Shown in pieces: positions 1 through 43,361 of a stretch of DNA of 64,000 nt. Below the pieces are notes generated by a model. The model saw only the letters and a list, made by a program, of their open reading frames with translations, made no database searches and had not been told where the DNA came from. How positions within the stretch are numbered: the first letter of the stretch is position 1; each line of letters starts with the position of its first letter. Both the position numbers and the translations under genes were made by a program. The stretch is from the NCBI GenBank assembly GCA_944363525.1, contig CALVUF010000003.1, forward strand, positions 42,306-106,305, given 5' to 3'. The stretch comes from an uncultured Bacilli bacterium. GTDB taxonomy: Bacteria; Bacillota_I; Bacilli_A; RFN20; CAG-826.

Positions 1-711
1 GGCGGAAGAAGAAGCTGTCTTGGGAAGTAGGGTAGGAATAAGGGGACTCGCTTAAATGGAATATGGCTTTTCTGTTCATGACGAATACACATATTAGTGG
101 GGACGATTCGGAAATGAAACAAATATCGATTTACCTTATTTCCTTGCTTTCGAGAAATGTTTCCAGACATCCTTTCGGCATACTGAACAAATAAGATGAA
201 TGGAATTCGCGAACTCGCGCCCACCGGCTTTTCTCCCCTCAGTTTTTCTTTGTTTAGGGGGGCTGCCCGATGAACGAAGAGGAGCTTTTTCGTCTTGTTT
301 CGATTCGCTGATTGCCGAGATGGACTATCCGTATATCCAAAACGCCTTCACTGGCCATTGGGTCTATTTACCCGGTTTCGCCCTGATGAAAGTTCAATGA
401 GGATGGCTTTATACCATCCGCAGGTTTTGGGCTTTGATTATTCCGACCTTGCTGGCGCGAAAGTCATGGCGACGAGCCTCGACTATCTTCCGGCGGATGA
501 GGCCGGTCGATATCAAGGAGCTAAAGCAAACCTAAAGCCTCGGAAGCGCCCAGCCAGCCGATGATTTGGCCGAAGCCGAACTCAAGGCTACTTTCCTAGA
601 TGAAAACGGCTATTCTTTATTTATGATGATAACCTTCTGAGCGCTTATGACTAGACTTATTTGTCTACTGGAAATCTTTTGGATTACCAGATGAAAATCT
701 AGATTATTGAT

Positions 712-1596
712 TCATTTGCTTTTGCGCCGCTTCCGCATATAGATGGGGAGGGAGGCGTAAATTAGGTCGCTTGACTCGACAAAATAGAGCAGTTTTTGAT
801 GGGTCTCCGCCCCCTCTAGATGGAGGAGGGTCTTTTTCCCGAGGCGGATGGCTTTGACGGTTTTGTAGGCCTTCTCGTCGTTATGGAGTTCATCTTCGGT
901 TAAGAAGCAGCCGCGGGGCCGGAAATCGAGGGAAGCGGGATAGACGGCGGTATCGACTTCCACATCGTCGGTTATCCGTTGCTTTTCTTTGTCGGCATAG
1001 TTCAAATTGTCCAAATCGACATAGAGGTCGACCTTTTGACCTTTTCGATAGGCTTTCTCCGAGACGAAGGGGATGATGATCCCGCTGGTGTCGCGGCCAT
1101 AATAGGTCTTCTTGTCCCCATAGTCCTTTTCCCCTTCGATCTTGACCTCGAAACGGTGCCCGCCCTTTATTTCCTCAGTTCGGACGTCGCTGGCGAGGAA
1201 GACGACCGATTTGGGATTTAGAGATCCAATCAAGCGTTTATCCAGCGAAGCTTTTTCCTCTTCGCTTAATTCGGCTTTGTCCAGTTCCATCTCGATAAGG
1301 GGGATGGCGTTGCTTAAGTTGCGTTCGGTCTTTTTGTCGAATAGATGCAATTTGCCGACGTCGAAACGGACCTTTATCTTGTCCCCTTTGGCCAGGGTAT
1401 TGGGCTCGACTAAGGAGAGGATGGTGAATTCCTTCCTTCCGCCAAGATGGAAATAGACTAAGGTCTGCTCGCCCAGCCGCTCGACCAATTCCACTTCGAC
1501 CGGGAAGCCGCTTTCATCGATCTTGATGTCGCTTGGCCGGATGCCAAGGTAGGCTTCGAGAGGGTAAACGTCCTCGCTAAGCTGGCATAGTTCCAC
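712..1596 (-). CDS. C-terminal part of the same MalK-like ATPase (TOBE/regulatory domain plus a ~190-aa extension)
   Basis: If one A is removed from the A7 run (+ strand T7 at 1654..1660) the ATPase continues as ...[44 protein letters not shown]..., a typical MalK C-terminal transport-associated domain. This ORF alone lacks an N-terminal ATPase domain. Confidence 0.8.
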
Positions 1597-2404
1597 CTCG
1601 GGGATGGCGATGTCGACCGATTCGTCGATGGAGACAAAGTGCTTTTCCTCGCCTTTTTTTGACGATGGTCCCCTCGAAGATGTTCATCTGCGGGCTGCCT
1701 AAGAAGGTGGCGACGAATATATTCCCCGGATGGTCATAGAGGTTCATCGGGGTATCGACTTGTTGAATCAATCCATCTTTCATGACCACGATCCGGTCGC
1801 CCATCGTCATCGCTTCGGTCTGGTCATGGGTGACGTAGACGAAGGTGGTTTGGATGTCCTGATGGAGTTTCGATATCTCGGCCCGCATCGCGACCCGGAG
1901 TTTGGCGTCGAGGTTGGACAAGGGCTCATCGAAGAGGAAGGCGGAGGGTTCGCGGACGATGGCCCTTCCGAGGGCGACCCGTTGCCGCTGGCCACCGCTT
2001 AGTTCCCGCGGTGTCCGCTTGAGCAGATTCTCGATGCCTAGGATCGCGGCCGCTTTATGGACTTTTTCCTCGATGACCTCTTTCTTAGCCTTTTGGCATC
2101 GGAGCGAATAGGCCATGTTCTCATAGACGCTCATATGGGGGTAGAGGGCGTAATTTTGGAAAACCATGGCGATATTGCGGTCCTTTGGCTCCAAATCGTT
2201 GACGTAGGTATCGCCGATGAAGATGTTGCCGGAGGTGATTTCCTCCAAGCCGGCGATCATCCTTAGGGTGGTCGACTTCCCGCATCCGGAAGGACCGACG
2301 AAGACGATGAATTCTTTGTCGTGGATCTCTAAGGAGGCGTCGGAGACGGCCCGGACCCCGCCTTTGTAGACCTTGGTGACGTTTTCCAATCTGATTCTAG
2401 CCAT
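1577..2404 (-). CDS. Sugar ABC transporter ATP-binding protein, MalK/MsmK family (ATPase domain portion of a frameshifted gene)
   Basis: Translation shows Walker [10 protein letters not shown], the ABC signature [10 protein letters not shown] and Walker [12 protein letters not shown]. The reading frame runs out right after FEGTIVKK at an A7 homopolymer, and the sensible continuation is in the adjacent frame (ORF 712..1596). Confidence 0.9.
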
Positions 2405-8693: not shown

Positions 8694-10247
8694 TTAGGCC
8701 GCGGCCTTGATGGTGATGATGTGGGAGTAGACGTTGTAGCTGAGGTCGTAGGTGCCGGCGACTTTGCACTTGAAGTTGTAGTTGCCGCCGGTGGGGTTGG
8801 CCGCTTCCCAGACATCGGCCGAGTTGGCGGTGTCTGAGTAGGTGAAGTTGTAGTCAGCGGCTTTGTTCGACCACCCATCGCCGACGGTGGTGGATCCAGC
8901 GGTGAAGCCGGCGATGGCGAATTCGGCGTTGGCCACCATCGCTATCCCTTTGAGTTCGTAGACTCGGGGATCGGTGGCGCTGACGGTGAACTTGTAGGTA
9001 TCTTTGAGGATATCGTTGTCATGGACAGTGGAGGGGGTCCAAGATAGACCGTCGCTGCTGGCCATGGTGCCGTTGAGGTAGTAGTCATAGACCGGTAAGG
9101 TCTTGGTCTTATCAACGGTGGCGGCCAGGCTTCCGGCGGCGTTATCGGCGCCCGGAGTGTAGAGGAAGGTGTATTCCCCAGCTTCCTTGGCGATGATGTT
9201 GTTACCGTTCTCCGGCTTAGTGAAGAGGGCTTGGGAAGCGGTGTCGAGGTTCGTGTAATTGATGTAGATATTGGCGTCAGCGGTCGAGCCATCGGCTTGG
9301 GTGGCGATGGTGTGGAACATGAATTCCTCGTTGGCGTCGAGATAGATAATCAGTTTGTAGGTCCCATCTTGCTGGTCCGCGAACCGGGTGGTGACATTCA
9401 ACTGGTTCTGCCAATTGGTGATTTTGGATCCTTTGATGTAATAGGCGAGGGTGGTCTCCGGTTTTTCTTCAACTGGGTCGCCATTCCGCTTGATGGTGAT
9501 ATTGTCGAGGTTATTGATGTGCTCGGTATCCTCGGGATCGATATGGTCGGGATAGGTCTTCAAGGTGACGGTGTAGTTGCCATCCTGGAGAATCTTGATG
9601 TTCGATTTCCGGTTCGAGGCCGCGATGCCACCCGCCCCTTCGACGATGTCGGACAGCTCAGACGCATTGATAATATAGCCGACGCCGTACTGCCAATCCC
9701 AGGCGTAGGGATCGGTCTCGGTTTCTTTAAACGAGGTGATCTGGAACTGATCGTTGGCGTAGAAATCGGTCGTGATGGTGAAGACGTTTTTGTTGGCTTC
9801 CTTGGTCAACTTATGGGCGTCAGTGGGGTTATCGCCCCAAGAGGAGGTCGAGAGGACGGGGGAAGTGCCGGCCCCGGCGAGGTAGAACACCCGGGTGTCT
9901 TCTTGATAAATTGAAACGGCCCCAAAGAGGGTGGTGTCCTCGGTGAGGGGGGTCTTGAAGTCGTAGATCCGGGAGAAGGTCGGGGTTAGGTACCAGCCAA
10001 CGAACTCACCTTCGCTCGGAGTGTAGGCGTAATTGGTGGGGACTCCACCGGTTTCGGCGAGCGTTTCGGTGTGGACGGTTTTGCCGTCGACTTGATAAGT
10101 GATGGTGACGCCGGTTTCCTCGGATTCGGTGGGGGTGGAAGTTGGAGTGGGTTCCGGCGGGGTGCTGGATGTGGACGTGGCGGCTGGGTCGCAGGCGACG
10201 AGGCCGAAGGCGGCCAGCAAGACGACGAACGCTTTTTTCTTAAACAT
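8694..10247 (-). CDS. Surface lipoprotein with N-terminal Listeria-Bacteroides repeat (Flg_new) and four ~100-aa internal repeats; putative glycan-binding
   Basis: Lipobox LVAC and a T/S/P-rich linker. The segment TITYQVDGKTVHTE...GEFVGWYLTPTFSRIYDFKTPLTEDTTLFG matches the Flg_new repeat pattern. Four aromatic-rich modules recur (VFYLAGAGTS..W, LAYYIKGSKITNW, DYYLNGTMASSDGLSW, AIAGFTAGSTTVGDGW). RBS AAAGGAGG precedes the start. Confidence 0.7.
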   Translation of the reverse strand: MFKKKAFVVLLAAFGLVACDPAATSTSSTPPEPTPTSTPTESEETGVTITYQVDGKTVHTETLAETGGVPTNYAYTPSEGEFVGWYLTPTFSRIYDFKTPLTEDTTLFGAVSIYQEDTRVFYLAGAGTSPVLSTSSWGDNPTDAHKLTKEANKNVFTITTDFYANDQFQITSFKETETDPYAWDWQYGVGYIINASELSDIVEGAGGIAASNRKSNIKILQDGNYTVTLKTYPDHIDPEDTEHINNLDNITIKRNGDPVEEKPETTLAYYIKGSKITNWQNQLNVTTRFADQQDGTYKLIIYLDANEEFMFHTIATQADGSTADANIYINYTNLDTASQALFTKPENGNNIIAKEAGEYTFLYTPGADNAAGSLAATVDKTKTLPVYDYYLNGTMASSDGLSWTPSTVHDNDILKDTYKFTVSATDPRVYELKGIAMVANAEFAIAGFTAGSTTVGDGWSNKAADYNFTYSDTANSADVWEAANPTGGNYNFKCKVAGTYDLSYNVYSHIITIKAAA

Positions 10248-18278: not shown

Positions 18279-18746
18279 CTAGCGGTGCTTCTCCCGGTAC
18301 TTCAATGGACTTAGCCCGACTATTCGATTGAAGATGCGGCTGAAATGGCTTTGGGAGGAAAAACCTAGGTAGGCGGAGATCGCCGGCAGCGGTTTGTCGG
18401 TGTAGTGGAGCAGTTCTTTCCTTTCCTTAACTTTCTCCCGCATGACGAATTCCGATAGGTTAATGCCGGTTTCCTCCTTGAATTTCGTCGAGAGCTTTCT
18501 TCGGCTGGTAAGGAGGGATTCAGCCATGTCGCTGGTTTTGATTGGCTCCGACAGATGATGGATTATGTAATTCCGGACATCGCTCACCAGTTTGGAATTG
18601 TATTCGCCTTCTTTCAGTCGATTGACCGCGGTGGTGTAATCGAGGACCATCTGATATTGAAGGGAAAAGGCCTCGATGGCGTTTTTGCATAATTCGACCT
18701 GTTGGATGTATGAATCGGACATCTTCAAGGCGTCTTGGACGTCCAT
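18279..18746 (-). CDS. AraC-family transcriptional regulator, HTH domain only (N-terminally truncated, RhaR/RhaS-like)
   Basis: C-terminal dual HTH YLGFSSQSHFSRIFNRIVGLSPLKYREKH. It is only 155 aa, whereas AraC-family regulators are typically ~280 aa, so the ligand/dimerisation domain is missing. Confidence 0.7.
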   Translation of the reverse strand: MDVQDALKMSDSYIQQVELCKNAIEAFSLQYQMVLDYTTAVNRLKEGEYNSKLVSDVRNYIIHHLSEPIKTSDMAESLLTSRRKLSTKFKEETGINLSEFVMREKVKERKELLHYTDKPLPAISAYLGFSSQSHFSRIFNRIVGLSPLKYREKHR

Positions 18747-19265
18747 CCCCGCCCCGGATGGCTGCTCGGCACTGGATTTTTGTCCACTCCTCTAATTTTA
18801 TATGTCCTAGAGACAATAAACCCTGAGTATGCTTATAAATTGTTGGAGAATGAAGAGATGCCGGGCTCTCTCTTCATGCCGAAATCCGGAGCTACGACCA
18901 TCTGGGAATCCTGGGAAGGTACCTATGCCCAAGGCGGGATCGCTTCCCTCGATCACTATTCCAAAGGGGCGTGCCTAGAATGGGTATTCTCTCGGATGAT
19001 GGGCATTAACCCCGACGGAGAGAACCATTTCACCCTCTCCCCGCTTCCTGGCGGCCACTTCGCCTACGCGAGCTGCGAATACCGCTCGGTGTTCGGGAAA
19101 GTGGCGGTGAAGTGGAAAAAGGAGGAGGGCAAGTGGGCGTTCCAAGTCGAGGTCCCTGCCAATTGCTTTGCCCCCTTCGTTTATCCCGACAAGACAAGTA
19201 AGGAGCTAAACGCTGGAACTCACGAGTTGGAATACAGGCACCCCTACAAAACGGATAAAGAATAA
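18735..19265 (+). pseudogene. Remnant of a GH78 alpha-L-rhamnosidase (C-terminal ~170 aa only)
   Basis: GATTIWESWEG...SLDHYSKGACLEWVFSRMMGINP...FTLSPLPGGHFAYASCEYRSVFGKVAVKWKKE matches the C-terminal region of bacterial alpha-L-rhamnosidases (Bac_rhamnosid C-terminal domain). The N-terminal ~700 aa of a normal GH78 enzyme are absent, and the fragment abuts head-to-head on the truncated AraC gene. Confidence 0.65.
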
Positions 19266-19313
19266 TCGAAAGAGAAAACCAATCAGAATCGAACTGCTTT
19301 AGATAGAGTCACT

Positions 19314-20624
19314 ATGGAAAAAAGGTATCTCGCCATCGATATCGGGGCCTCCTCCGGCCGCGCCATTCTTTCTTTTGAGAAGGAGGGGCTGCTTTGCTCT
19401 GAGGAAGTCTATCGGTTTCCCAATGGGCCGATTAGTCGCGACGGGCATCTGATCTGGGACCTCGATAAGCTCTTTGAGGAAGTCAAAAAAGGGATTAAAG
19501 CCGCCTTCGCGGTTTGCCCGAACATCCGGAGCCTCTCAATCGATACCTGGGGTTGCGATTACGTGCTTTTAAAAGGCGAGGCCCCGGTTTATCCAGGGTA
19601 TTGCTATCGTGATTCGCGGACCGAGTCGATCATCGATGAGGCCCATTCCCGGATTTCTTTCGTTGAGCTATATTCCTTAACCGGTATCCAGTTTCAGCCT
19701 TTCAACACCATCTATCAGCTTTACGAGGATAAGTTAACCGGGCGGCTTGAAGGCGTGAGCGATTTCCTTATGCTCCCTGAATACCTTTCTTTCCGGCTGA
19801 CCGGGGTCAAGAAAAAAGAATACACCAACGCCACCACGACCGGCCTAGTCGGGGCGGATGGGGAGTTTTCCCGCACCATCACCGATAAACTGGGCTTGCC
19901 GAGCCATTTGTTTCCCAAACTCTCCAAACCGGGGGCGGAATTAGGCCATCTGAGCCAAGAGATCGCTAGCCAAGTCGGGGGCGATTGCCTCGTCCGGCTT
20001 TGCGCTTCCCACGACACCGCCTCGGCGGTTGAAGGGGTGGTGTTGCCATCCACCGCTTTGTATTTGTCGTCGGGAACGTGGTCGCTTTTGGGGGCCAAGG
20101 TCCCCTCGCCAATAACCAACGAGGAGGCCCGCCGGTGCAACTTCTCCAACGAAGGGGGACCGGGCTATATCCGTTTCCAGAAGAACATCATGGGGATGTG
20201 GGTCATCAACCGGCTGAAGCGAGAACTGTGTCCGAACGAGGATTTCCCCTATGTCATCAAATTGGCCAAGCTCAGCAAATCGAATAAGACCGTCGACATC
20301 AATGGGCCAGCCTACTTGGCCCCCGAGTCGATGAGAAAAGCCATTGAAGCGGAAATCGGGGAAGGGGAATTAGGCCCCGGCGAGTTATTCCGCATCGCCT
20401 TCAATTCCTTGGCTAAGTCTTACGCCGGCACCATTAAGCAGATCGAGGACATCACCCATAAATCCTTCGATTCCCTCGTCATCTTCGGCGGCGGGGCCAA
20501 AAACGGCTTCCTCAACGAATTGACCGAGCGGATATCCGGCAAGCGGGTCATCGCCTTGCCGGTCGAGGCCACGAGCCTTGGCAATCTGAAAATCCAAATG
20601 AAAGGAGATAAAGCATATGACTGA
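19314..20624 (+). CDS. rhaB: Rhamnulokinase (FGGY carbohydrate kinase)
   Basis: N-terminal YLAIDIGASSGRAIL and FGGY-family features, with rhaA and rhaD immediately downstream. No SD sequence is visible upstream. Confidence 0.85.
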   Translation: MEKRYLAIDIGASSGRAILSFEKEGLLCSEEVYRFPNGPISRDGHLIWDLDKLFEEVKKGIKAAFAVCPNIRSLSIDTWGCDYVLLKGEAPVYPGYCYRDSRTESIIDEAHSRISFVELYSLTGIQFQPFNTIYQLYEDKLTGRLEGVSDFLMLPEYLSFRLTGVKKKEYTNATTTGLVGADGEFSRTITDKLGLPSHLFPKLSKPGAELGHLSQEIASQVGGDCLVRLCASHDTASAVEGVVLPSTALYLSSGTWSLLGAKVPSPITNEEARRCNFSNEGGPGYIRFQKNIMGMWVINRLKRELCPNEDFPYVIKLAKLSKSNKTVDINGPAYLAPESMRKAIEAEIGEGELGPGELFRIAFNSLAKSYAGTIKQIEDITHKSFDSLVIFGGGAKNGFLNELTERISGKRVIALPVEATSLGNLKIQMKGDKAYD

Positions 20625-21861
20625 CAAGTACTTATTGGCAAAGGAAGAATACGCCAAAGCCGGGGTTGATACCGATACCGCCATCGCCCGGATCAAGGAG
20701 ATCCCCATCTCCATCCATTGCTGGCAAGGGGATGACGTCATCGGCTTCGATGGCTCCGCTTCCTTAGAAGGCGGGATCCAGACGACCGGGAATTACCCGG
20801 GAAGGGCTCGGAACTTTGAAGAACTGAAAGCCGACCTCCATGAGGCTTTCTCCCTGATCCCGGGAAAGAAACGGCTGAACCTCCACGCCTCCTACGCTAT
20901 CCTAAATGGGGAGAAGGTTGATCGGGACGCCTATCGGCCCGACCATTTCGCCCCGTGGGTTGAATTCGCCAAAGAGGAAGGGCTCGATGGCATCGACTTC
21001 AACCCGACCTTGTTCTCCAGCCCGAAGATGAAGGATGGCTTATCCTTATCCTCCCCCGATGAAGAAACTAGAGAGTTCTGGGTCCGTCATTGCCAGGCTT
21101 GTCTTAAAATCTCTGAGTATTTCGCTAAGGAGATGCAGAGCCACTGCCTAATGAACATCTGGATCCCCGATGGGTATAAGGATGTCCCGGCTGATCGGCT
21201 TGGCCCCCGGCTAAGATTGAAGCAGAGCCTCGACGAGATCCTCTCGATCGGTTATGACCGGCACCTCGTCAAAGTCGCGGTTGAGAGCAAGGTGTTCGGC
21301 ATCGGGCTGGAGTCCTATACCGTCGGCAATTCCGAGTTCTATATGAATTACGCGGCCAAGAATAATCTTTGTTGCCTCTTGGACAATGGCCATTACCACC
21401 CGCTGGAATACGTAAGCGACAAGATCCCATCCCTACTAGCCTTTTACGATAACGTCGCCCTCCATGTCACTCGAGGGGTCCGTTGGGACTCCGACCATGT
21501 CGTGACCTTCGAAGACGAACTGAAGGAAATCGCCAAGGAGATCATTAGGAACGACGCCGATAAAAAGGTGATGATTGGCCTCGATTACTTCGATGCCTCG
21601 ATCAATCGGATCGCCGCTTGGGTCACCGGGGCCCGGAACATGGAGAAAGCCTTGCTCTATGCGGCTTTAATCAACAATAAGCGGCTGAAGGAATTGCAGG
21701 ATAAAGGCGACTTCACCACCCTCTTCGTTGAGACCGAGGCCATTAAGGATCGGCCTTATGGCTTGGTCTTCGAAGAATACCTCCGGCAGTTTGGGTTAAC
21801 GCTTGATTACCTGACCCCGATCAGGGAATACGAAAAGCAGGTCTTAAGCAAGAGGAAATAA
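20617..21861 (+). CDS. rhaA: L-rhamnose isomerase
   Basis: IARIKEIPISIHCWQGDDVIGFD closely matches E. coli RhaA (LPVSMHCWQGDDVSGFE). It is ~414 aa and overlaps rhaB by 8 nt. Confidence 0.92.
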   Translation: MTDKYLLAKEEYAKAGVDTDTAIARIKEIPISIHCWQGDDVIGFDGSASLEGGIQTTGNYPGRARNFEELKADLHEAFSLIPGKKRLNLHASYAILNGEKVDRDAYRPDHFAPWVEFAKEEGLDGIDFNPTLFSSPKMKDGLSLSSPDEETREFWVRHCQACLKISEYFAKEMQSHCLMNIWIPDGYKDVPADRLGPRLRLKQSLDEILSIGYDRHLVKVAVESKVFGIGLESYTVGNSEFYMNYAAKNNLCCLLDNGHYHPLEYVSDKIPSLLAFYDNVALHVTRGVRWDSDHVVTFEDELKEIAKEIIRNDADKKVMIGLDYFDASINRIAAWVTGARNMEKALLYAALINNKRLKELQDKGDFTTLFVETEAIKDRPYGLVFEEYLRQFGLTLDYLTPIREYEKQVLSKRK

Positions 21862-21863
21862 GC

Positions 21864-22694
21864 ATGAAAGATATTTTGGAAAGTAAGTTCTTAAAAGAGT
21901 TTTGCCTGACCGCCGACAACATGTATCGGCTGGGCTGGGACGAACGGAACGGGGGTAATATCTCGTTATTGCTCAAAGATGACGAGGTCAAAGAATGCCT
22001 CGATGTTAACAAAGTCAAACGGGTCATCCCTTTGATGGGCGTCCATGCGGTCGATTTCGATATCACGCCGCTGATCGGCAAATGCTTCCTCGTCACCGGG
22101 ACCGGCAAGTACTTCAAAAACGTCTTACGGGAACCCTCCGTCAACCTCGGGGTCGTCCGGATCAGAGAAGACGGCAAGTCGCTCGATTTGCTCTGGGGGT
22201 TTGAGGATGGGGGACGGCCGACCAGTGAATTCCCGGCCCATATGATGAGCCATATCGCCCGGCTCAGCGTCGATCCGGAAAACCGGGTGGTGATGCATTG
22301 CCATCCGACCTATACCTTGGCCATGAACTTCGTCCATCCCCTCGATGAGAAGCTCTTCGCCAAAGACCTCTGGCGGATGTGCACCGAATGCGTCGTCGTC
22401 TTCCCCGATGGCATTGGGGTTTTGCCCTGGATGCTCTGCGGGACGACCGAGATCGGGAAGGCGACCGCCGAGAAGATGAAGGAATACCGGCTCGTCGTCT
22501 GGGCGATGCATGGCATCTATGGGGCTGGCAAGGACTTGGATGAGACCTTTGGATTGATCGAGACGGTCGAGAAAGCGGCCCAGATCTATATGCTGACCTT
22601 CGATAAACCCCAGTGCAACACCATCACCGATGAGGCGATGAAACAATTGGTTGACCTGTTCGGGGTCAAAGTCAAAGACGGCTACCTCGATTAA
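21864..22694 (+). CDS. rhaD: Rhamnulose-1-phosphate aldolase (class II aldolase)
   Basis: YRLGWDERNGGNISLLLKDDEV matches E. coli RhaD (LKGWDERNGGNLTLRLDD). It is 276 aa. Confidence 0.92.
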   Translation: MKDILESKFLKEFCLTADNMYRLGWDERNGGNISLLLKDDEVKECLDVNKVKRVIPLMGVHAVDFDITPLIGKCFLVTGTGKYFKNVLREPSVNLGVVRIREDGKSLDLLWGFEDGGRPTSEFPAHMMSHIARLSVDPENRVVMHCHPTYTLAMNFVHPLDEKLFAKDLWRMCTECVVVFPDGIGVLPWMLCGTTEIGKATAEKMKEYRLVVWAMHGIYGAGKDLDETFGLIETVEKAAQIYMLTFDKPQCNTITDEAMKQLVDLFGVKVKDGYLD

Positions 22695-22786
22695 CCTTCT
22701 TCCCCGTTTAGTTCGCTAGACGGGGATTTCTTTTGCCTTCTTTCCGTCTTCGGCGGTTTAATTTAACCGGATTGAAGGAGCAAACC

Positions 22787-23551
22787 ATGAAAAGAGTTAC
22801 CTTAGTGACCGGGGCCGCCTCCGGCCTTGGCAAAGAATTCGCCAAGCTTTACGCCCATGATGGGCACGCCTTGGTCTTAGTCGACAAAGACGAGGAAGGG
22901 TTGAAGAAGGTCGCCAGCGAACTCGGCGGGGATATCGATATCCTCCCGGCCGATTTGACCAAGCGGGAAGAGTTGGAGAAAGTGTTCGACCATTGCCAGT
23001 CCGCCGGCTATTTCGTCAATTACCTGCTGAACGTCGCCGGGTTTGGCGATCGTTGCGATTTTCAGGACATGGCCATCGCCAAGCAACTTGACATGACCGA
23101 GGTTAACTGCAACGCTGTTCTCTATTTCACCCGCGTCTTCTTGACTGACATGCTCAAAAAAGATGAGGGGCATATCATCAACGTCTCCTCGATCGCCGGT
23201 TTCTACCCCGGACCTTATATGTGCACTTACCATGCCACCAAGGGGTTCGTGTTGCTGCTTGGCGAATCGATCGCCTATGAGTTAAGGAAGACCAACGTCA
23301 AATTGCTGACCCTTTGCCCGGGCCCGTTCAATTCGGCTTTTGTGAGCAAAGCCCATAACGATTACACTTTCTCGAAGATAAAACCGGTGTCGGCCGAATA
23401 CGTCGCCAAGTTCGGTTATGAGAAATCGAAGAAGGGCAAAACCCTTGCCGTTATCGGCTTCAAGAATAAGCTGACCGTTTTCGCTTCCCGCTTCGTCTCG
23501 CGGAAATTCATCGCCAAGACCAGCGCGAAGACGATGAAGAAAGACGCCTAG
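22787..23551 (+). CDS. Short-chain dehydrogenase/reductase (SDR family oxidoreductase)
   Basis: Rossmann motif TLVTGAASGLGKEFA and catalytic Y..xK (YHATKGF). Start chosen at MKRV with AAGGAG upstream. Confidence 0.8.
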   Translation: MKRVTLVTGAASGLGKEFAKLYAHDGHALVLVDKDEEGLKKVASELGGDIDILPADLTKREELEKVFDHCQSAGYFVNYLLNVAGFGDRCDFQDMAIAKQLDMTEVNCNAVLYFTRVFLTDMLKKDEGHIINVSSIAGFYPGPYMCTYHATKGFVLLLGESIAYELRKTNVKLLTLCPGPFNSAFVSKAHNDYTFSKIKPVSAEYVAKFGYEKSKKGKTLAVIGFKNKLTVFASRFVSRKFIAKTSAKTMKKDA

Positions 23552-24324
23552 AATTTGGCTTCGACCGCTTCCTTGGCCGCCTTTTCGATGATATCGAAAT
23601 TGGCTTTGACTTTATCTGGCAAAGCGGCGGTTTTGATTTCGCTGATGGGGAAATAGCCATAGAGGGTATAAGCCCAGGTGAGGCTGATTAAGAACCGTCC
23701 CACGTCGAAAGACATATGGAAGCCATCGCGGGTGATGGTATCGCCTAGCCGGCTAGCCCGGAGGTTTTGGACGGCCAAAGCCGAGGGGATGACGCCGGCG
23801 AATTCCTTATTGGTCATCACCTTTTCCTTCACCGTTTTGATGATGGCCTCGAGCATCTGCTTTTGGCTATTGTGGTAAAGCGGGAAGTCCCAGTGGGTCG
23901 AGTCAGCTTGATAGGCCCAGGTCATCTGCCAAAGCAACTTAAAATCGGGGTTGGGGCAGTGGGCCCGGAGATAGGTAACGATCTTATCGAGGTCGGCATA
24001 GGTATCGGGGATGCCGGAATGGCCGCTGTATTGCTGGAGGGTCAAGATATCCCATTTCCGTTCCATTAAGGCTTTCTCCAAGGTGTAGTTAGGATGGTCG
24101 TCGAGCCCATCGTAACGGTAGACCCGATAGGAGTAGTCGGGGATGTTTTCCTTTATGTTCTTGTAATGCCGTTCCAAGGAGCAGCCGCCGATGTAAAGGT
24201 TGCCGATATGGAGTTCCTTGACCCCATGGTCCTTAAGAATCGGAAACAAATAGTCGACCGCATCGTCGGAAAAGGAATTGCCGATGCAAAGCAAAGAAAG
24301 CGAATCTTTTTTCGTCAAAATCAT
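23548..24324 (-). CDS. SGNH/GDSL-type hydrolase (DUF4886-like esterase)
   Basis: LLCIGNSFSDD block I with the Ser nucleophile. Start set at the internal Met (MILTKK), because the 24 upstream codons of the ORF are not hydrophilic or signal-like. Confidence 0.65.
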   Translation of the reverse strand: MILTKKDSLSLLCIGNSFSDDAVDYLFPILKDHGVKELHIGNLYIGGCSLERHYKNIKENIPDYSYRVYRYDGLDDHPNYTLEKALMERKWDILTLQQYSGHSGIPDTYADLDKIVTYLRAHCPNPDFKLLWQMTWAYQADSTHWDFPLYHNSQKQMLEAIIKTVKEKVMTNKEFAGVIPSALAVQNLRASRLGDTITRDGFHMSFDVGRFLISLTWAYTLYGYFPISEIKTAALPDKVKANFDIIEKAAKEAVEAKF

Positions 24325-24445
24325 CGTTTTGACCTCCGCGGTTAATGTTAGGCGGAGGCTAGGGCAAAGTAAAGCGGCAAAAATACCACTACACAAATTT
24401 GGTTTTGTCTATTAAACTACGTGTGTATCAAAGGACAACTTAACC

Positions 24446-25003
24446 ATGGACAGAAGAATCATACGGACCACCGACGTTATCCGTCGTTACGTCCTCAAAG
24501 CCCTTAAGCTGCGGCCGCGCTCCGAAATCAACGTCTCCGACATCTGCAAGGGGTGCAACCTCTCCCGCTCGACTTTCTATCTCCATTACCACTCGGTCAG
24601 CGATGTGGTCGAGGAGATCGCCGATCGGCAGATCGCCGAGTTCAAGCGGATCGCCATGACCTATATCGGGCGGAGCGAGGAGACGGTCCTCCACATCGGG
24701 GCCCACATCCGGAAGAACAGCGATGAGCTCTCGGTTATCCTCGACAACGCCCCGAGCTATTTCGCCAACAAGATGGTCGAGCTGGTGGAGCCGGTCTTGC
24801 TCAGCCAAGACGGGTTCGACGCCGACGCCAAAGCCACCCGTTACTTCTCCATCTTCATCATCTATGGCTGCATGGGCATGTTTGGCCGTTGGCTCAGCTC
24901 CGGACGCGACATCACCGCGGTCGAGCTCATCCGCAAGTTCATCGATTACTTCCAAATCTTCAAGAATCAGAATTTGCTCAATAAGCCTGCAGAGGCTCAA
25001 TAA
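24446..25003 (+). CDS. TetR/AcrR-family transcriptional regulator
   Basis: N-terminal HTH EINVSDICKGCNLSRSTFYLHYHS and an alpha-helical C-terminal domain. Confidence 0.8.
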   Translation: MDRRIIRTTDVIRRYVLKALKLRPRSEINVSDICKGCNLSRSTFYLHYHSVSDVVEEIADRQIAEFKRIAMTYIGRSEETVLHIGAHIRKNSDELSVILDNAPSYFANKMVELVEPVLLSQDGFDADAKATRYFSIFIIYGCMGMFGRWLSSGRDITAVELIRKFIDYFQIFKNQNLLNKPAEAQ

Positions 25004-25130
25004 ACGCCTTAAAAACGCTTAAACCCGGCGGTTTCGCTGGGTTTTCTTTTTTCATTTTTTCGTCCGGCTTTTGCGTGCTTCTTTTCCAACCCATTTATTG
25101 CTTAGCCTAATTAGGCTAAAATAGCGCGGT

Positions 25131-26564
25131 ATGGCCGAAAACGCGACGCGCATCAAAGGGGGAAGGAAAAACACCAAGTACTTCCTCTATATCGCCATCG
25201 TCTTGATCGCGACCGCGCTTTCGTTATTCTTTGCCCTTAACGGCCAGTTCGATGAAGTCGTGGAGTCGCTCCGCACCGCCGATTGGCGTTACCTCCTTTT
25301 GATCCTCGGCTTGGTCTTCCTTTCCTACTGCGTCGACGGGCTGATTATCCTTATCTTCTGCCGCCTCTACACTCGGAAGTATAAGTTCCACCAAGGGCTC
25401 GCCGCTTCCTTAGTCGGGCAATTCTATTCCAACGTCACCCCGGGCTCTTCCGGTGGCCAGGTCATGCAATGCTATACCCTCAAAAGCCAAGGGGTGGCGG
25501 TCAGCAACGCCGCCTCGATCTTCGTCATGTGGTTTATCCTTTACCAATCGGCGTTGATTGGGCTTGATATCGTCGCCTTCTTCTTTGAGATGGACGTCAT
25601 TTTGTCCGCCCCCAATTACCATATCCCCGGGACCAGCATTTACCTTCCGATGGTCCCGCTTGTGGTCATTGGCTTTCTGCTTAACATCTCGGTCATCTTC
25701 TTGCTGGTCGTCATGTCTTATTCCCACCGGTTCCATAATTTCATCATCCATTACGTCATCGGCTTCCTAGGCAAGATCCATCTCATCAAGCATCCCGACC
25801 GAGCCCGGGAATCGGTTCGGATTCAGGTCGAGAACTTCAAGATTGAGCTCCGGCGGTTGATGTCGAATATCCCGGTTTTGATTCTTCAGTTGGTGTTATT
25901 TTTGGTGATGCTCTTGTTACGGAACGCCGTCCCGTATTTCTCCGGCCTTTCGATCGGGGCCTATGAATACGCGACTAAGGACTTATTTCATTCGATCTTC
26001 CTCGCCGCCTTCCACCAGATGGTGACGGGGCTGATCCCATTGCCCGGTTCAGCTGGGATCTCAGAGTTTTTCTTCAACGCCTTATTCTCGACCATGATCC
26101 CTAATCCGACCTTATTGGCCTCGGCCCAGATCATTTGGCGGACCGCCACCTTCCACTTGATGTTCTTAGTCTCCGGCCTAACCGCTGCCCTTTACCGTTC
26201 CCGGCCGAAGGAGCCGATGCATTACGCCAACCGCCAGACCTTCGTCGATATCCAGCTTGCTACCTACGAAGAACGGAAGAAGAGCTCCGATACCCTCTTT
26301 GAGACGCGACAACTATCCCGTCGGGCTCTGCAAAAACGGATTGGCGATTCCTTGGGCAAGAAGAATAAGAACGACACAGACGAGATCCATCTCCCCGACG
26401 AAGTCACTTCCTTCGTGATCGAGACCGAGGTCAAGGAAACCCCGAAGGTGGAGCCGGTAATGGAGAAAAAGGCTAAAATAAAGAAAGAGAAGCCGGCTAA
26501 GGTTAAGAAAAAGAAGACCGAAGCCCCGGCCCTTGATGATTCCTGGGAGCATTGGGATATATGA
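25131..26564 (+). CDS. Flippase-like membrane protein (lysylphosphatidylglycerol-synthase TM-region / UPF0104 family)
   Basis: Multi-TM protein with the conserved TPGSSGGQ motif of the MprF-like flippase domain. Lysine-rich cytoplasmic tail. It is translationally coupled to the downstream GT4 gene. Confidence 0.7.
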   Translation: MAENATRIKGGRKNTKYFLYIAIVLIATALSLFFALNGQFDEVVESLRTADWRYLLLILGLVFLSYCVDGLIILIFCRLYTRKYKFHQGLAASLVGQFYSNVTPGSSGGQVMQCYTLKSQGVAVSNAASIFVMWFILYQSALIGLDIVAFFFEMDVILSAPNYHIPGTSIYLPMVPLVVIGFLLNISVIFLLVVMSYSHRFHNFIIHYVIGFLGKIHLIKHPDRARESVRIQVENFKIELRRLMSNIPVLILQLVLFLVMLLLRNAVPYFSGLSIGAYEYATKDLFHSIFLAAFHQMVTGLIPLPGSAGISEFFFNALFSTMIPNPTLLASAQIIWRTATFHLMFLVSGLTAALYRSRPKEPMHYANRQTFVDIQLATYEERKKSSDTLFETRQLSRRALQKRIGDSLGKKNKNDTDEIHLPDEVTSFVIETEVKETPKVEPVMEKKAKIKKEKPAKVKKKKTEAPALDDSWEHWDI

Positions 26565-27736
26565 AGATCGCTTTATTCTCCGATACCTATCCCCCGGAGA
26601 TCAACGGGGTCGCGACCTCGACCTATAACCTCCGCAAGACGATGGAGGACCACGGCCATGAGGTCTTAGTCGTCACCACCAATCCTTTCTCGAAGGAAGT
26701 GAGTTTTGAGAATGGGGTCATCCGTTTACCCGGTTTGCGCTTAAAACGGCTTTACGATTACCGGTTGTCTTCTTTCTATAACGAAAAGGCGATGCGGATC
26801 ATCGTCAACTTCCGGCCCGACATCGTCCATTGCCAACATGACGTCGGGGTCTCGATCTTCGGGAATCTGGTGGCCGCCAAACTCCATATCGGCTCGGTCT
26901 ATACCTTCCATACCCTGTATGAGGATTATGCCTATTACGTCACCAAGGGCCATTTCGACCGTTTCGCCCGGCAAGCCATTCGGCTTTACTTCCGGGGGAA
27001 GGCCGGGCTCTATGATGAATTCATCGCCCCGAGCATCAAGACCAAGGATTACCTCCGTTCGATCGGCATCGATTCGACCGTGACCGTCATCCCGACCGGC
27101 ATCGAGTTTGAACGGTTCTCGCCTTTAAACGCGGACAAAGCCAAGACGGCCGAACTCCGGCAGCAGTTCAATCTTTCCCCCGATGATTTCATCGTTTTAT
27201 CGCTTGGCCGGATTGCCAAGGAGAAGTCAATTGACGTGGTTATCAATGGTTTCGCAGCCTTTTTGCGGCGTTATCCATCGATTAAGGCCAAAATGCTCGT
27301 CACTGGTTGGGGCCCGGCCGAGAAAGAGCTGCAGGCTTTGGCTGCTAAGTTGCAAATCGCCGATAAAGTCATCTTCACCGGCAAATGCGACCCCGATCAA
27401 ACCCAGTGGTATTACCACCTGGGCAATGTCTTCGCTTCCGCCTCCTTATCGGAAACCCAAGGACTGACCTTCATGGAGGCGATGGCGGCCCATCTGCCGG
27501 TCCTCGCCCGTTATGACGATAACCTGGCCGGGACGGTCAAAGACGGGGTCAACGGCTTCTTCTTCGCCGATGAAGAGGACTTCGCCTATAAACTCAAGCG
27601 GATCTATGATCTTGGTACTGAAGGAAGGAAGAAGCTCGGCAATGCCGCGAGCGATTCCATCGAGGACTATTCGATGGAGAAGTTCTATGCCAATGTCTAT
27701 GAGGTGTATAAACGTGTCGCGAAGAAATCCTGGTGA
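26552..27736 (+). CDS. GT4-family glycosyltransferase, monoglycosyldiacylglycerol synthase-like (membrane glycolipid synthase)
   Basis: N-terminal MKIALFSDTYPPEINGVATSTYNL and a GT-B fold (EX7E region FFFADEED). It resembles Acholeplasma/Firmicutes 1,2-diacylglycerol 3-glucosyltransferases. Confidence 0.75.
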   Translation: MGYMKIALFSDTYPPEINGVATSTYNLRKTMEDHGHEVLVVTTNPFSKEVSFENGVIRLPGLRLKRLYDYRLSSFYNEKAMRIIVNFRPDIVHCQHDVGVSIFGNLVAAKLHIGSVYTFHTLYEDYAYYVTKGHFDRFARQAIRLYFRGKAGLYDEFIAPSIKTKDYLRSIGIDSTVTVIPTGIEFERFSPLNADKAKTAELRQQFNLSPDDFIVLSLGRIAKEKSIDVVINGFAAFLRRYPSIKAKMLVTGWGPAEKELQALAAKLQIADKVIFTGKCDPDQTQWYYHLGNVFASASLSETQGLTFMEAMAAHLPVLARYDDNLAGTVKDGVNGFFFADEEDFAYKLKRIYDLGTEGRKKLGNAASDSIEDYSMEKFYANVYEVYKRVAKKSW

Positions 27737-30036: not shown

Positions 30037-31635
30037 TCAGTCGAATAAATCGGGGAAGGTGGTTTCGAAGTAGTCGTAGATGGTCTGGTCGTGATAAGAG
30101 AGGGCCATTTCCTCGACATAATGCTGCTGGGCCGCTTTCTGGTAGGATTCGGTATCGGAGACCAACCCGGCGACGGAGTAGATGATGTCGTAGATGTTCT
30201 TCCCTTCCATCTTGTCGTAGGAGGCATCGCCGCCTTGGACCAGTTTCGGGGCCTTGACCGCTTCGTCAACCCGGACGATGTACCAGGTCGAGGAATCCTT
30301 ATCGTAGATGCAATAGGGGTATTCCTCATCGTGCTCGTACTGCTCGGGGACCATGTAGTAGGACCCGCCGACGTACCAGCCGAAGTTGCCTTTGGCGTTA
30401 TCTTCCGCCGCCCCTTCCCGGTCGACTTCGTTGGCGACCGTGATCTTGAACAGACGGTTCGAGATCGAGGAGGCGAGGTCGGTTAAGCCGGTCGAGGTGT
30501 ACCAGCCTTCGGTGACGTGGCTGGTGGCGACGGTTTCCCGCTTCTTGATCTCCAAGCCGGTCTCCTTGGTGTAGGCGCCAGCATTGGTGAAGTCAGTCGA
30601 GGAACCGGTGACGTTCCGGTCATCGGAGAGTTCCTTGTAATCCTTGGCGATTTTGCCATAGGTCGTCTCTTCGTAGGTGGCCTCGGTGTTGTCATCGGCC
30701 GAGGCGGCCACGGTGGTGAAGCCGGCTTCGGCGTAGATAGTCTGGGCGAACTGGAAGTCTTCGTTGTTCTCCGCATCGACGAAGTAGCCTTTGTAAAGCT
30801 GATCGAGGAAGTGGAGGTCGCGGTACTTCGGATCGACATCGGTGCCATTGAGGACCAACTTGGCATAGGAACGGACTAACCGTTGGGTGCCGAATTGGAC
30901 GCCATCGATGTCAGGAAGGGCGATGTATTGGACCTTCCGGGCATAGGAACGGCCGAGGACGCCGTAGTTGTTGTCGAGGAGGTATTGCTCGACTAAGGCT
31001 TTCCGATAGATCGTCGGGAGGATGCTCCGCTCGATGTAGTCCTCGTAGGTGACGTACATGTCGGTGAAGTAATCCTCGACGTTTTGGTAATCCTTAGCCC
31101 CGTCGAGGGCGGTTTCCTTATAGGAAGCGACGGTGCCGAGCTTATAAAGCTCCGCGACCTGGGCCCGATAGAATTCCCGTTCGAGGAAGAGGGACCGCCT
31201 CTGATAGGTGGTGTTCTCGACGACGGACCACATCTGGGTCTTGATCTGATCGACGACGTGGCTTATGAAGGCTAAGGCGTTGGCCTGGCCTTTCTCCCCT
31301 TCGCCATAGACCGGATGGTTGGCGACGAAGGAGGCGAGTTTGGAATTGTCAGCATAGACCTCGTACATCCCGCCTTCGCCGAAGAACTCACCGAAGAGCC
31401 CTTTGGAATAAAGAGCGAGGATGTTGTTGAGGACCTTCTCCGAGTTGGAGTCGCCGGCCGTGACCAAAGCATTGTAGATTTGGCCCATGTTGTTGTTGAC
31501 GACGTCATCGAGGTTGAGGATCGGGGCGTCGGCGACATCAGTCGGCAATCCGGCTTCGACGTCGGAGCAGGACGCGAGGCCAAGGGTGGTGGCCGCTAAG
31601 GCGGTCAAAGCAAAGGCTTTCAGTTTATTTTCCAT
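30037..31635 (-). CDS. Large surface lipoprotein of unknown function (paralogue-like of the adjacent PrsA-type lipoprotein N-region)
   Basis: Start at MENKLKAF... (GGAGGAG RBS upstream). Lipobox LGLASC. About 530 aa, acidic, Tyr-rich. A rho-independent terminator (GGGCA...TGCCC + T-run) lies at about 29990..30025. Confidence 0.7.
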   Translation of the reverse strand: MENKLKAFALTALAATTLGLASCSDVEAGLPTDVADAPILNLDDVVNNNMGQIYNALVTAGDSNSEKVLNNILALYSKGLFGEFFGEGGMYEVYADNSKLASFVANHPVYGEGEKGQANALAFISHVVDQIKTQMWSVVENTTYQRRSLFLEREFYRAQVAELYKLGTVASYKETALDGAKDYQNVEDYFTDMYVTYEDYIERSILPTIYRKALVEQYLLDNNYGVLGRSYARKVQYIALPDIDGVQFGTQRLVRSYAKLVLNGTDVDPKYRDLHFLDQLYKGYFVDAENNEDFQFAQTIYAEAGFTTVAASADDNTEATYEETTYGKIAKDYKELSDDRNVTGSSTDFTNAGAYTKETGLEIKKRETVATSHVTEGWYTSTGLTDLASSISNRLFKITVANEVDREGAAEDNAKGNFGWYVGGSYYMVPEQYEHDEEYPYCIYDKDSSTWYIVRVDEAVKAPKLVQGGDASYDKMEGKNIYDIIYSVAGLVSDTESYQKAAQQHYVEEMALSYHDQTIYDYFETTFPDLFD

Positions 31636-33763
31636 CGTAGCAAGCTCCTCCATAAGCCCATTCGCCGGTTCCTTCCCGAGCGGCAACGCTGTTGTAGCCG
31701 ATGGCGCAGGTTTCGGAAATCAGCTTCTGGCTGCCGTCTTGTTTCATGGTGCGGGCGGCATCCTGCTGTTCGAGGTATTCGGCGTAGGTGACCCAGTCAT
31801 CGTCGAAGGACTTTTGGGTGTCATCGACGGCTTTCTGACGGGTGATGCGGATGTAATCCTTGATGAGCTTCCCGAAATCGGCATCGGCGAAGGTGATCTT
31901 CGAGCTGTCGAGTAATTCCTGGAAGATGTAGTTGTCGAGGTTGGAATCGAAGTTCTGGATGGCGTCCTTGACGACCTTGGCCTTGTCGGCGTAGCTGGAG
32001 TCAGCCGAGACCAGCTTATTGACGAAGGTGGTCTTGGCGGTCGCCTTCCCATCGACTACATAATAAGGATAATAGTCGGCTTCCCTATCCGCGGTAACCG
32101 AGCTCGGATTGCTCGGGAGGCGGTCCGGGGTGTGGATGGTGTAGTAGTCGTTGAGCGAAGTAATGTTCGAGCTCGACTTATTGGCATCGTAATCGGCCTT
32201 GGTGTTTTCCTTGATGGTCTTGTTGGTCGCATCGTAGCTCAAGCCATATTCGGAGAGGGCTGAACGGTCGGCGACGATGAAGTGGATGCCTTGGTAGGAG
32301 GAAGTGCCGGCCCGGACGGCGAGGATGATCTGGCCCTTGTCGTTGGTCAAGACATTGCTGTCGATGTCCGGGAGGATGCCGGTGGTGTCGACCGAGAATC
32401 CCGGAAGGGCGGCGTATTTGGTATCGAGCGTACCAGCGGTGATCGGCTGTCCGTTTTCATCCGCTTCCTTGGTGACATCATAGGTTTTGGCTGGGCTGTT
32501 TTCCTCAGTGATGTCACCCACCGGGGTGGCCCCGTCGGCCGTGATTTTCCCGTCAAGGAAGTCGTTATAGGAGATGCGGTTCGGGGTGATGACGGCGATC
32601 TGATGATTATTGAAGTACTTATTGAAGAGAATGTTCCGGGCGTAGTAGGTTGCGGAGTTCTCATTGACCTGGTAGCCGAGGTCCGGCTCACCGCCCTTGG
32701 CGGAATAGGAGACGGAGGCATCGGCGAGGGCGACGGCGGCGCCATAGGGGATGGTGCCGAGCTTGCGGTCGATAAATTCCTGCTTGACCGAGGTGCCGTC
32801 ATCGAGCTTGGCGTCATCGCTCGGGAGGAGACGGTTCTTCATCTCGTCGGTGGCGTAGGCGTTGTTGGCCTGATTGGAATAGAGGGCGTCAAAGGCATAG
32901 AGGCCGAGTTTGAATTCGGGGACGAATTCGGTCGAGAGGTCCATGATGCCCAGGTCGCCGTAATCCGACGAGGATTCGGTGTCATCGGAGAGCTCATAGG
33001 CGATCGAGCCGAAGCTCAAGCGCTGAGCGACCGGTTCGGTGCCATGTTTATTGTCCGAGGTGTCGGCGCCGGCGAGTTCCTTGATGACGTCGCCAAGCTT
33101 CTCCGACTCAGTGGCCGAGATGGTGGCTTGGGCGTGCTCATTGCTGCTAGCCGATTCAAACTTAACGAGGATGTGGGAGACGTGATAGGGCATCCGGGTC
33201 TTGAGGTAGCCATCGCTAACCGGGCCGAATTCCGCTTCGGCCTCAGCGGTCCGTAGGCTATCCCAGAGGCTGCCATCCCGCATCTTGCCAAGGTTGCTAT
33301 TGGTGTAATAGTCCTTGGTGAATTGATCTTCTTCTAATTCGTAGAGCTTAGCGTCGAGCAATTCGTCCACGTTATCGACGTTGTTCGAATCCAAGAGGGC
33401 TTCGAATTCCTCTTGGTAGCTGGTGCCATTGTTATTGGCGTTGGTCTCGGCCTGGCTCTTAATGCCATCGACGGCATTTTGGGCTTGATTCTGCAAGTCG
33501 GCGAGTTTGCTGGCTTGGGCCGGTTCCTGGTAGTACTGGCGGATCAATACTTCCTTGACCTTGGAATAGGCGGTGCTGGCGGAGCTGGCGGAATTCTGAT
33601 AATCGCCGAAGAGGTCCTCGGCGGTATATTTGACTCGATTCCCGGACGCATCCGTGTAAGTTAGCAGCACGCCTTCGTCGTAAGTGACCTCGGAGCAGGC
33701 AGCGAGGGCGCCGCCGGCGACGAGGGCTCCGACTAGACCAAGGGTGAGTTTAGTTTTCTTCAT
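31625..33763 (-). CDS. PrsA-like foldase lipoprotein with parvulin-type peptidyl-prolyl isomerase domain and long C-terminal extension (712 aa)
   Basis: Lipobox ALAAC. The parvulin core reads MPYHVSHILVKFE...FGSIAYELSDDTESSSDYGDLGIMDLSTEFVPEFKLG. The protein is much longer than canonical ~290-aa PrsA. Confidence 0.75.
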   Translation of the reverse strand: MKKTKLTLGLVGALVAGGALAACSEVTYDEGVLLTYTDASGNRVKYTAEDLFGDYQNSASSASTAYSKVKEVLIRQYYQEPAQASKLADLQNQAQNAVDGIKSQAETNANNNGTSYQEEFEALLDSNNVDNVDELLDAKLYELEEDQFTKDYYTNSNLGKMRDGSLWDSLRTAEAEAEFGPVSDGYLKTRMPYHVSHILVKFESASSNEHAQATISATESEKLGDVIKELAGADTSDNKHGTEPVAQRLSFGSIAYELSDDTESSSDYGDLGIMDLSTEFVPEFKLGLYAFDALYSNQANNAYATDEMKNRLLPSDDAKLDDGTSVKQEFIDRKLGTIPYGAAVALADASVSYSAKGGEPDLGYQVNENSATYYARNILFNKYFNNHQIAVITPNRISYNDFLDGKITADGATPVGDITEENSPAKTYDVTKEADENGQPITAGTLDTKYAALPGFSVDTTGILPDIDSNVLTNDKGQIILAVRAGTSSYQGIHFIVADRSALSEYGLSYDATNKTIKENTKADYDANKSSSNITSLNDYYTIHTPDRLPSNPSSVTADREADYYPYYVVDGKATAKTTFVNKLVSADSSYADKAKVVKDAIQNFDSNLDNYIFQELLDSSKITFADADFGKLIKDYIRITRQKAVDDTQKSFDDDWVTYAEYLEQQDAARTMKQDGSQKLISETCAIGYNSVAAREGTGEWAYGGACYDGK

Positions 33764-43358: not shown

Positions 43359-43361
43359 AGG

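Follow-up and report, generated by a model that had tools for sequence, protein, structure and literature searches.

Probable loss of a glycoside utilisation module by one deletion at a 13-nt microhomology in an uncultured gut Bacilli bacterium

In this study, we examined the rhamnose locus within a 64,000-nucleotide stretch of DNA (the window) from an uncultured Bacilli bacterium, contig CALVUF010000003.1, in which a shortened AraC-family regulator gene and a shortened GH78 alpha-L-rhamnosidase gene lie head-to-head upstream of rhaB, rhaA and rhaD. Our conclusion, which we hold with a probability of about 0.88, is that a single deletion of approximately 8.5 kb at a short microhomology truncated both genes and left two non-functional stubs beside an intact rhaBAD. 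In line with this, an earlier note made from the sequence of the window had proposed one deletion that removed the 5′ ends of both genes together with the divergent region between them, and had named alignment with intact relatives as the check. In that alignment the flanks are colinear with those of an intact relative and meet at a 13-nt microhomology, and full-length araC and GH78 genes in two relatives confirm that both window genes are truncated. Contrary to the 2-3 kb assumed at that time, the missing segment is about four times larger and also held genes for a GH3 glycosidase, a transporter and an esterase.

Intact locus and deletion junction

Relatives of the locus were found by scanning a genome collection with RhaB, which returned L008 at 87% identity and L010 at 81%; the remaining matches, from Oscillospiraceae and other Clostridia, reached 60% identity at most. 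In L008, araC occupies 427..1722 on the minus strand, and the last 155 amino acids (aa) of its product are 95% identical to the regulator open reading frame (ORF) of the window. Divergent from it follow genes for a GH3 glycosidase (813 aa), a symporter assigned to the GPH family by MFS_2 and TIGR00792 (729 aa), a GDSL/SGNH esterase (257 aa) and a GH78 enzyme (854 aa), then rhaB, rhaA and rhaD and, beyond rhaD, an SDR gene, a DUF4886 gene on the minus strand and a TetR gene, exactly matching the order in the window. The GH78 protein, encoded directly upstream of rhaBAD, has five domains (Ig_Rha78A_N, Bac_rhamnosid_N, Bac_rhamnosid, 6H and C). A further locus, L101 (GCA_949282565.1), has the same arrangement with a second GH3 gene added, and shares the left flank of the window: araC (392 aa), nucleoside hydrolase, a 115-aa ORF, MgsA, 4HBT and VTT. 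Since the genes from GH3 to rhaD lie on one strand and either overlap or are less than 180 nt apart, we infer that they form a single operon, which would be driven from the divergent region between araC and GH3.

Compared with L008, the window consists of two segments: positions 17854-18771 correspond to L008 1-918 at 96.2% identity, and positions 18759-27000 to L008 9446-17669 (blastn). The segments overlap by 13 nt at 18759..18771, where the window reads TGGCTGCTCGGCA, the one retained copy of a repeat that is found at both L008 sites, at approximately 906-918 in araC (TGGCCGCTCGGCA) and at 9446-9458 in the GH78 gene (TGGCGGCTCGGCA). This microhomology, TGGC[C/G]GCTCGGCA, occurs once in each of these two genes of L008, the left-hand copy in the linker region of araC and the right-hand copy at codons 687-691 of GH78. 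The two copies are identical at 12 of 13 nt, with a perfect 8-nt core, GCTCGGCA, and may also be given as the repeat TGGCNGCTCGGCA at both sites of the intact allele. Where the parental copies differ (C and G), the window has T, and a diverged scar-bearing sequence from another study, L100, has C. Counted on L008, the segment missing from the window measures 8,540 bp; had the ancestral gene order been that of L101, the figure would be about 10.8 kb. The segment comprises 229 N-terminal codons of araC, the control region, the GH3, symporter and esterase genes, and 686 codons of GH78. Neither these genes nor their DNA were found elsewhere in the 64-kb window by tblastn and blastn, which leaves an inversion or translocation unsupported.

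Slipped mispairing and RecA-independent illegitimate recombination classically leave a scar of this kind, in which colinear flanks meet at one remaining copy of a short direct repeat; the E. coli lacI deletions are the classic example. As in a microhomology-mediated deletion of the lacI type, the same short sequence stands at both endpoints of the intact allele, exactly one copy is left at the junction, and the flanks are colinear. It differs from the lacI cases in that the mechanism is read from the scar alone and in that the retained copy has T where the parents have C or G. A predicted 8-bp hairpin, TGGTCGAGGCCCTCGACCA, lies at L008 9420-9438, 8 nt upstream of the right-hand repeat, and might have favoured slippage.

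We therefore propose the following history in conditional terms. The ancestor would have carried a glycoside and rhamnose utilisation locus with araC (392 aa) on one strand and, divergent from it, a tightly packed operon of GH3, GPH symporter, GDSL esterase, possibly a second GH3, GH78, rhaB, rhaA and rhaD. Replication slippage or RecA-independent illegitimate recombination between the two 13-nt near-repeats, in the araC linker and at GH78 codons 687-691, would then have removed about 8.5 kb in one step, from the 5′ half of araC through the divergent control region, GH3, symporter and esterase to most of GH78. Two 5′-truncated stubs would have been left to drift without function, and rhaBAD, formerly the distal genes of the operon, would have remained intact but deprived of the upstream control region, the dedicated hydrolases and the transporter.

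The scar is not confined to one assembly. Exact look-ups of the 155-aa regulator protein, RhaB and the nucleoside hydrolase gave 11-12 contigs each, up to 258 kb in length. About 12 contigs bear the scar; they belong to ENA and Logan assemblies that represent at least five samples, and every locus fetched among them has the scar and is 100% identical to the window over 17,300-20,700, as far as the contig reaches (3.4 kb). L100, at 97.9% identity to the window, shares this junction. The scar is thus genuine and has become fixed in a lineage. We give practically no credence to a chimeric assembly or to an assembly error at a short repeat: although the junction does fall on a 13-nt repeat and all data are metagenome assemblies, this repeat is far shorter than assembler k-mer sizes, the junction is identical between ENA and Logan assemblies across the samples and long contigs just described, and a version diverged by 2% comes from a different study.

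The truncated genes

The regulator remnant is a 155-aa ORF (18279..18746, minus strand) with an internal methionine start, equivalent to residues 238-392 of the 392-aa protein of sister genomes. Pfam HTH_18 matches residues 74-152 (68.2 bits; cutoff 33.6) and HTH_AraC scores 44.6 bits (cutoff 26.6), indicating that the C-terminal double helix-turn-helix domain of about 100 aa is present. Alignments to full-length models cover only the C-terminal part of these (TIGR04094, 235-383 of 383; AraC, 158-285 of 292) and did not reveal the N-terminal effector-binding and dimerisation domain, in keeping with some 237 extra N-terminal residues in the L008 and L101 orthologues. The ORF had been described as an approximately 100-aa DNA-binding domain and nothing else; it is indeed C-terminal only, but its 155 aa also include about 50 aa of linker. 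The proposed identity as RhaS or RhaR, on the other hand, has to be abandoned, as the window ORF scores 41.6 against 288 for RhaS, and 37.3 against 363 and 35.8 against 525 for RhaR. Even the full-length L008 regulator reaches only 146 bits with its best model, TIGR04094, against a cutoff of 200, and is far below the RhaS and RhaR cutoffs too. In the intact relatives, the regulator stands head-to-head with a glycosidase and a rhamnose operon, an arrangement of the AraC, RhaS/RhaR and XylS type. It differs from AraC and RhaS/RhaR in being an orthologue of neither and in scoring far below the equivalog cutoffs, and the window differs from the two-domain AraC/XylS regulators in keeping only the C-terminal 155 aa and an eight-codon stub out of frame.

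This stub (18747..18771, minus strand) comprises the eight codons upstream of the internal methionine, ...CRAAIRGG, and is split from the ORF by insertion of one C in the C-run at 18747-18750, which is CCCC in the window and CCC in both L008 and L100. Just upstream of the methionine, the minus strand encodes ...IQCRAAIRGG in a different frame (ORF 18520..18816). Aligned homologues share the conserved motif LVSRAAIRGGMD immediately before and including the first methionine of the window ORF, and the L008 protein reads through this region uninterrupted as VICRAAIRGGMDVQ. Because the AraC coding sequence continues out of frame past the ATG, the gene was once longer and is now broken, as opposed to being a naturally short member of its family; the 155-aa ORF would merely begin at the first in-frame methionine downstream of the break. 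By tblastn, residues 274-431 of the L008 araC ORF match window 18752-18279 at 94% identity (the ORF is 431 aa as listed, and residues 274-431 correspond to approximately 235-392 of the 392-aa protein).

On the other side of the junction, the GH78 remnant (18759..19265, plus strand) retains the last 168 of 854 codons and the stop codon, within an ORF listed as 18735..19265 (176 aa). That it represents only the C-terminal end of a GH78 enzyme, as had been suggested, is confirmed by profile search: the Pfam matches are limited to positions 259-338 of 339 of Bac_rhamnosid6H and to Bac_rhamnosid_C, the C-terminal beta-sandwich (43.6 bits; cutoff 22.1), and the same search found no Bac_rhamnosid_N, Bac_rhamnosid or Ig domain, whereas the L008 protein has all five domains. 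Residues 687-854 of the latter match the stub at 94% identity (tblastn). The gene order of the intact relatives, a five-domain GH78 directly upstream of rhaBAD, resembles that of gut Bacillota in which GH78 accompanies GH3 and rhaBAD; the window differs in retaining only the last 80 or so positions of the 6-hairpin profile and the C-terminal beta-sandwich. Whether taken as 176 aa or as the 135 aa that result when gene callers of public contigs begin the fragment at ATG 18858, the product would be unable to form the (alpha/alpha)6 catalytic domain. The two ORFs do overlap by 12 nt, as noted earlier, at 18735-18746, but this overlap is mechanical and an artefact of the start codon, since TTG 18735 is simply where the first possible start falls behind a stop codon. 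The true extents of homology are AraC-derived DNA up to 18771 and GH78-derived DNA from 18759.

The earlier note had held that a short AraC protein conserved as such in related genomes would speak against a truncation. In clusters at 90% protein identity, the AraC members (n = 50) are mostly 392 aa and the GH78 members mostly 854 aa, with the 155- and 135-aa forms in the minority. Short match lengths were considered as evidence for a short AraC family and rejected, since matches in the two homologue searches were never longer than about 1.75 times the query (272 aa for the 155-aa query; 308 aa for the 176-aa query); full-length relatives surfaced only through cluster members and the genome scan.

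Fate of the stubs

To judge the state of the stubs, differences were polarised among the window, L100 and L008. The L100 AraC stub is without the +1 C of the window and has changes of its own, a -1 frameshift at 18459 and a nonsense codon, Y150*. Among substitutions at conserved positions, a tryptophan to serine change in the MPGWLF motif of GH78 is specific to the window, and other scar-bearing variants show tryptophan to arginine in the conserved WESWEG motif and glycine to tryptophan in the second (C-terminal) helix-turn-helix of AraC. With both stubs combined, the ratio of nonsynonymous to synonymous changes is 12:5 after the split of the two scar lineages and 9:19 on the remaining branch (Fisher p = 0.016). 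Only such lineage-polarised counts were useful here; the pairwise ratio of nonsynonymous to synonymous rates (dN/dS) was set aside as a test of decay, since the two stubs and rhaB alike give a value of about 0.2, which does not discriminate. The polarised counts, small as they are and with L100 at low coverage, support neutral drift of both stubs, which look like pseudogenes.

Several points weigh against this interpretation. The substitution counts are small, and taken gene by gene the comparison gives p of about 0.2 each. L100 is a single low-coverage scaffold of 1.2 kb, whose frameshift and nonsense codon could be sequencing errors. Compared pairwise between window and L008, both stubs show a dN/dS of about 0.2, and most of this divergence therefore predates the deletion or stems from the intact lineage. 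The 155-aa ORF of the window itself is uninterrupted, and by analogy with XylS a residual constitutive function is conceivable. As to the deletion more generally, loss of the promoter is deduced from operon architecture alone, and the search for relocated genes spans only 64 kb of the genome, such that relocation elsewhere is conceivable.

The most direct alternative is that the 155-aa protein is a functional regulator consisting of the DNA-binding domain only, either of the MarA/SoxS type or an activator that truncation made constitutive and selection preserved; it would drive rhaBAD or other genes without a sugar signal. We consider this quite improbable. In its favour, the ORF is unbroken both in the window and in about 12 contigs, and several homologues on long contigs (P0015, P0017, P0018, P0008 and P0027) start at or near the same conserved methionine. 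For XylS, activation of transcription by its C-terminal domain on its own is reported in the part of PMC5481539 that cites Kaldalu et al. 2000, and the isolated domain provides a precedent. MarA, SoxS and RamA, too, are of comparable size (107-129 versus 155 aa) and consist of the double helix-turn-helix only. These proteins, however, are conserved at their short length, whereas close homologues of the window protein, at 90% identity or above, are 392 aa long, with the short form as a deletion allele in the minority; against the MarA, SoxS and RamA models the window ORF scores 32-42 bits, with cutoffs of 174-250. The AraC coding sequence, moreover, extends upstream of the ATG out of frame, the promoter region of the gene and the operator region it faced are both deleted, and GGGGCGGGG directly abuts the ATG, a poor Shine-Dalgarno spacing. 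The frameshift and stop codon in L100, the nonconservative changes at conserved positions and the elevated proportion of nonsynonymous changes point the same way, and the shortness of database matches is in part the artefact of match length described above.

Short homologues of the same AraC subfamily do occur elsewhere. In Candidatus Enteromonas sp. (GCA_051872275.1; locus L005, 5616-6495), a 164-aa homologue with about 50% identity starts at the same conserved methionine and overlaps by 2 nt, head-to-head, an internal GH3 fragment of 128 aa (Pfam profile 149-260 of 316). This is an independent scar of the same geometry, in which the sequence upstream of the methionine shows no homology to AraC. 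Three more short homologues (158-181 aa) are found at L095 7001-7507, L096 7001-7546 and L099 7001-7477, beside a type I restriction-modification system, a nucleotidyltransferase toxin-antitoxin-like pair and a LysR regulator, respectively; these contexts are heterogeneous and share no theme. In P0015 and P0027, homology begins at or near the GGMD motif. Clustering of starts at GGMD may be an effect of domain boundaries or gene calling, or may reflect recurrent truncation. Paralogues cut near the same methionine could likewise result from recurrent selection for sensor-less regulators during genome streamlining.

Mosaic tract around the scar

The scar lies in a tract of about 3.3 kb (16600..19950) in which sliding-window identity to L008 and L101 is 94-99%, extending from near tRNA-Leu to the middle of rhaB, while the flanks are approximately 80-85%, or about 82%, identical to the species of L008 and L101. 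Beyond about 20,150, on the right, the window resembles L010 more closely (85-91%); within the tract, L010 shares just 57-84% identity, in most places about 70%, with window and L008 alike. MnmG from the window has only 88% amino-acid identity to its closest non-conspecific relatives, and its best named matches are metagenome-assembled genomes labelled Candidatus Enteromonas or 'Bacilli bacterium', at 64-67%, with Candidatus Enteromonas closest at 67%. The contrast of 96% and 83% identity across the junction might be read as homology-facilitated illegitimate recombination ending at the junction. This reading was rejected because identity to L008 is 95-97% on either side of the junction, and the drop in the sliding-window profile sits about 1.2 kb further right, inside rhaB.

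It is probable, from these identity profiles, that the scar is located inside a tract of interspecies homologous recombination. Going further, homologous recombination may have brought in from a sister species either the allele with the scar or the DNA that later acquired it. Such an import is compatible with the deletion proposed here and concerns only where the event took place; we regard it tentatively, at somewhat less than even odds. It would account for a tract at 94-99% between flanks at 80-85% in a genome whose MnmG is only 88% identical to that of the closest other species, and the L010-like sequence right of 20,150, next to a tract in which L010 is distant, suggests that L010-like resident sequence was replaced. 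Against it, neither the direction of transfer nor the order of deletion and transfer is established, the genomes seen include no scarred member of the sister species and no intact locus in the species of the window, and L100, at 1.2 kb, is too short to be assigned to a species. If true, gene loss in these gut Bacilli would spread horizontally in addition to being inherited vertically. The combined proposition, that the loss allele or its DNA moved between species and that sensor-less constitutive AraC regulators are recurrently selected, appears unlikely to us.

Integrity and significance of rhaBAD

In contrast to the two stubs, rhaB (19314-20624, plus strand), rhaA (20617-21861, plus strand) and rhaD (21864-22694, plus strand) are intact, as stated in the earlier note, with the same lengths as in relatives and dN/dS of 0.03-0.2. 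RhaA and RhaD exceed their family cutoffs (NF002203, 593 bits versus 572; NF002963, 356.5 bits versus 170), and RhaB falls below its own (TIGR02627, 375 bits versus 528), though rhamnulokinase is clearly its best match. Window-specific amino-acid changes number 7 in rhaB (versus 30 and 56), 12 in rhaA (versus 19 and 9) and 5 in rhaD (versus 21 and 8), and this comparison revealed no excess of changes specific to the window lineage in any of the three genes. Pathway decay, as it had been put, therefore describes the upstream module and does not extend to rhaBAD.

Nor can the absence of a Shine-Dalgarno sequence before rhaB serve as a sign of decay. The 48-nt spacer between GH78 and rhaB (19266-19313) is without a good one, but it is nearly identical in the intact L008, and the weak ribosome-binding site is thus ancestral. 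GH3 in L008 (1780-1817 upstream) also has no recognisable Shine-Dalgarno sequence, as is the case for rhaB in intact genomes, and the lineage may depend little on initiation led by this element. A scan for consensus promoters found nothing in the window; it says nothing either way, because the divergent control region of the intact L008 likewise gave no hit.

The transporter that seemed to be missing is indeed absent, which the deletion explains, but the gene lost is a glycoside-type GPH symporter and not a known rhamnose permease. A rhamnogalacturonan target, as had been suggested, found no support; judged by gene content, the lost functions (GH78, one or two GH3, GPH symporter and esterase) would fit small plant rhamnoglycosides at least as well.

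Taken for what it is, the event is ordinary gene loss, a new instance of a known process reconstructed to the base, and what is mildly unusual is limited to the recombination tract and to the fact that AraC paralogues with a similar truncation recur. It provides a clean, base-resolved example of an uncultured gut Bacilli member losing a glycan-foraging module: one slip between 13-nt repeats would have cost it the sensor of a regulator, two hydrolases, an esterase and a transporter, and orphaned the rhamnose catabolic genes. This has a practical side for annotation, as the 155-aa 'AraC family regulator' and the 135- or 176-aa 'rhamnosidase' of public assemblies look like pseudogene fragments, and rhamnoside use predicted from matches to them would be wrong. 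Its value is mainly that of a worked case, together with the hint of interspecies recombination across the locus.

Neighbouring genes and further observations

Other forms of erosion were seen in related loci. When L008 7211-7388 is compared with L101 16,886-19,189 (reverse complement), a second erosion event, independent of the first, becomes apparent in this operon: L101 and L010 have a second GH3 gene of 2.3 kb that L008 has lost except for short remnants of its two ends, which lie between the gene for the esterase and that for GH78. On a 116,761-bp contig of a close relative, the 478-aa protein P0201 follows GH78 for about 466 residues and then ends in an aberrant tail, APLCQKASDRCL, which suggests a frameshift and would represent a third way in which the locus is lost in this clade.

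To the left of the scar, the flank is anchored by a nucleoside hydrolase gene (17375..18244, minus strand; Pfam IU_nuc_hydro), which follows araC in the same order in L101 and L008. The right-hand neighbours common to all relatives are an SDR oxidoreductase gene (22787-23551, plus strand) and, convergent with it, a DUF4886 gene (23548-24396, minus strand), inside which a 258-aa gene, equivalent to 23548-24324, is annotated on public contigs. Rfam and tRNA scans detected no RNA element at the scar locus; the only Rfam and ARAGORN matches in the window are an FMN riboswitch (43359-43473), a class B RNase P RNA (51256-51575) and tRNA-Leu (16688-16772). Further along, two large adjoining ORFs on the minus strand, 30037-31686 (549 aa) and 31625-33763 (712 aa), gave no Pfam match at E ≤ 1e-5. 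Finally, the 598-aa ORF at 56431-58227 (plus strand) joins a MiaB-like radical-SAM methylthiotransferase (UPF0004, Radical_SAM, TRAM) to a C-terminal region resembling Com_YlbF/YmcA; this is an uncommon fusion, or else two genes have been joined in one ORF.

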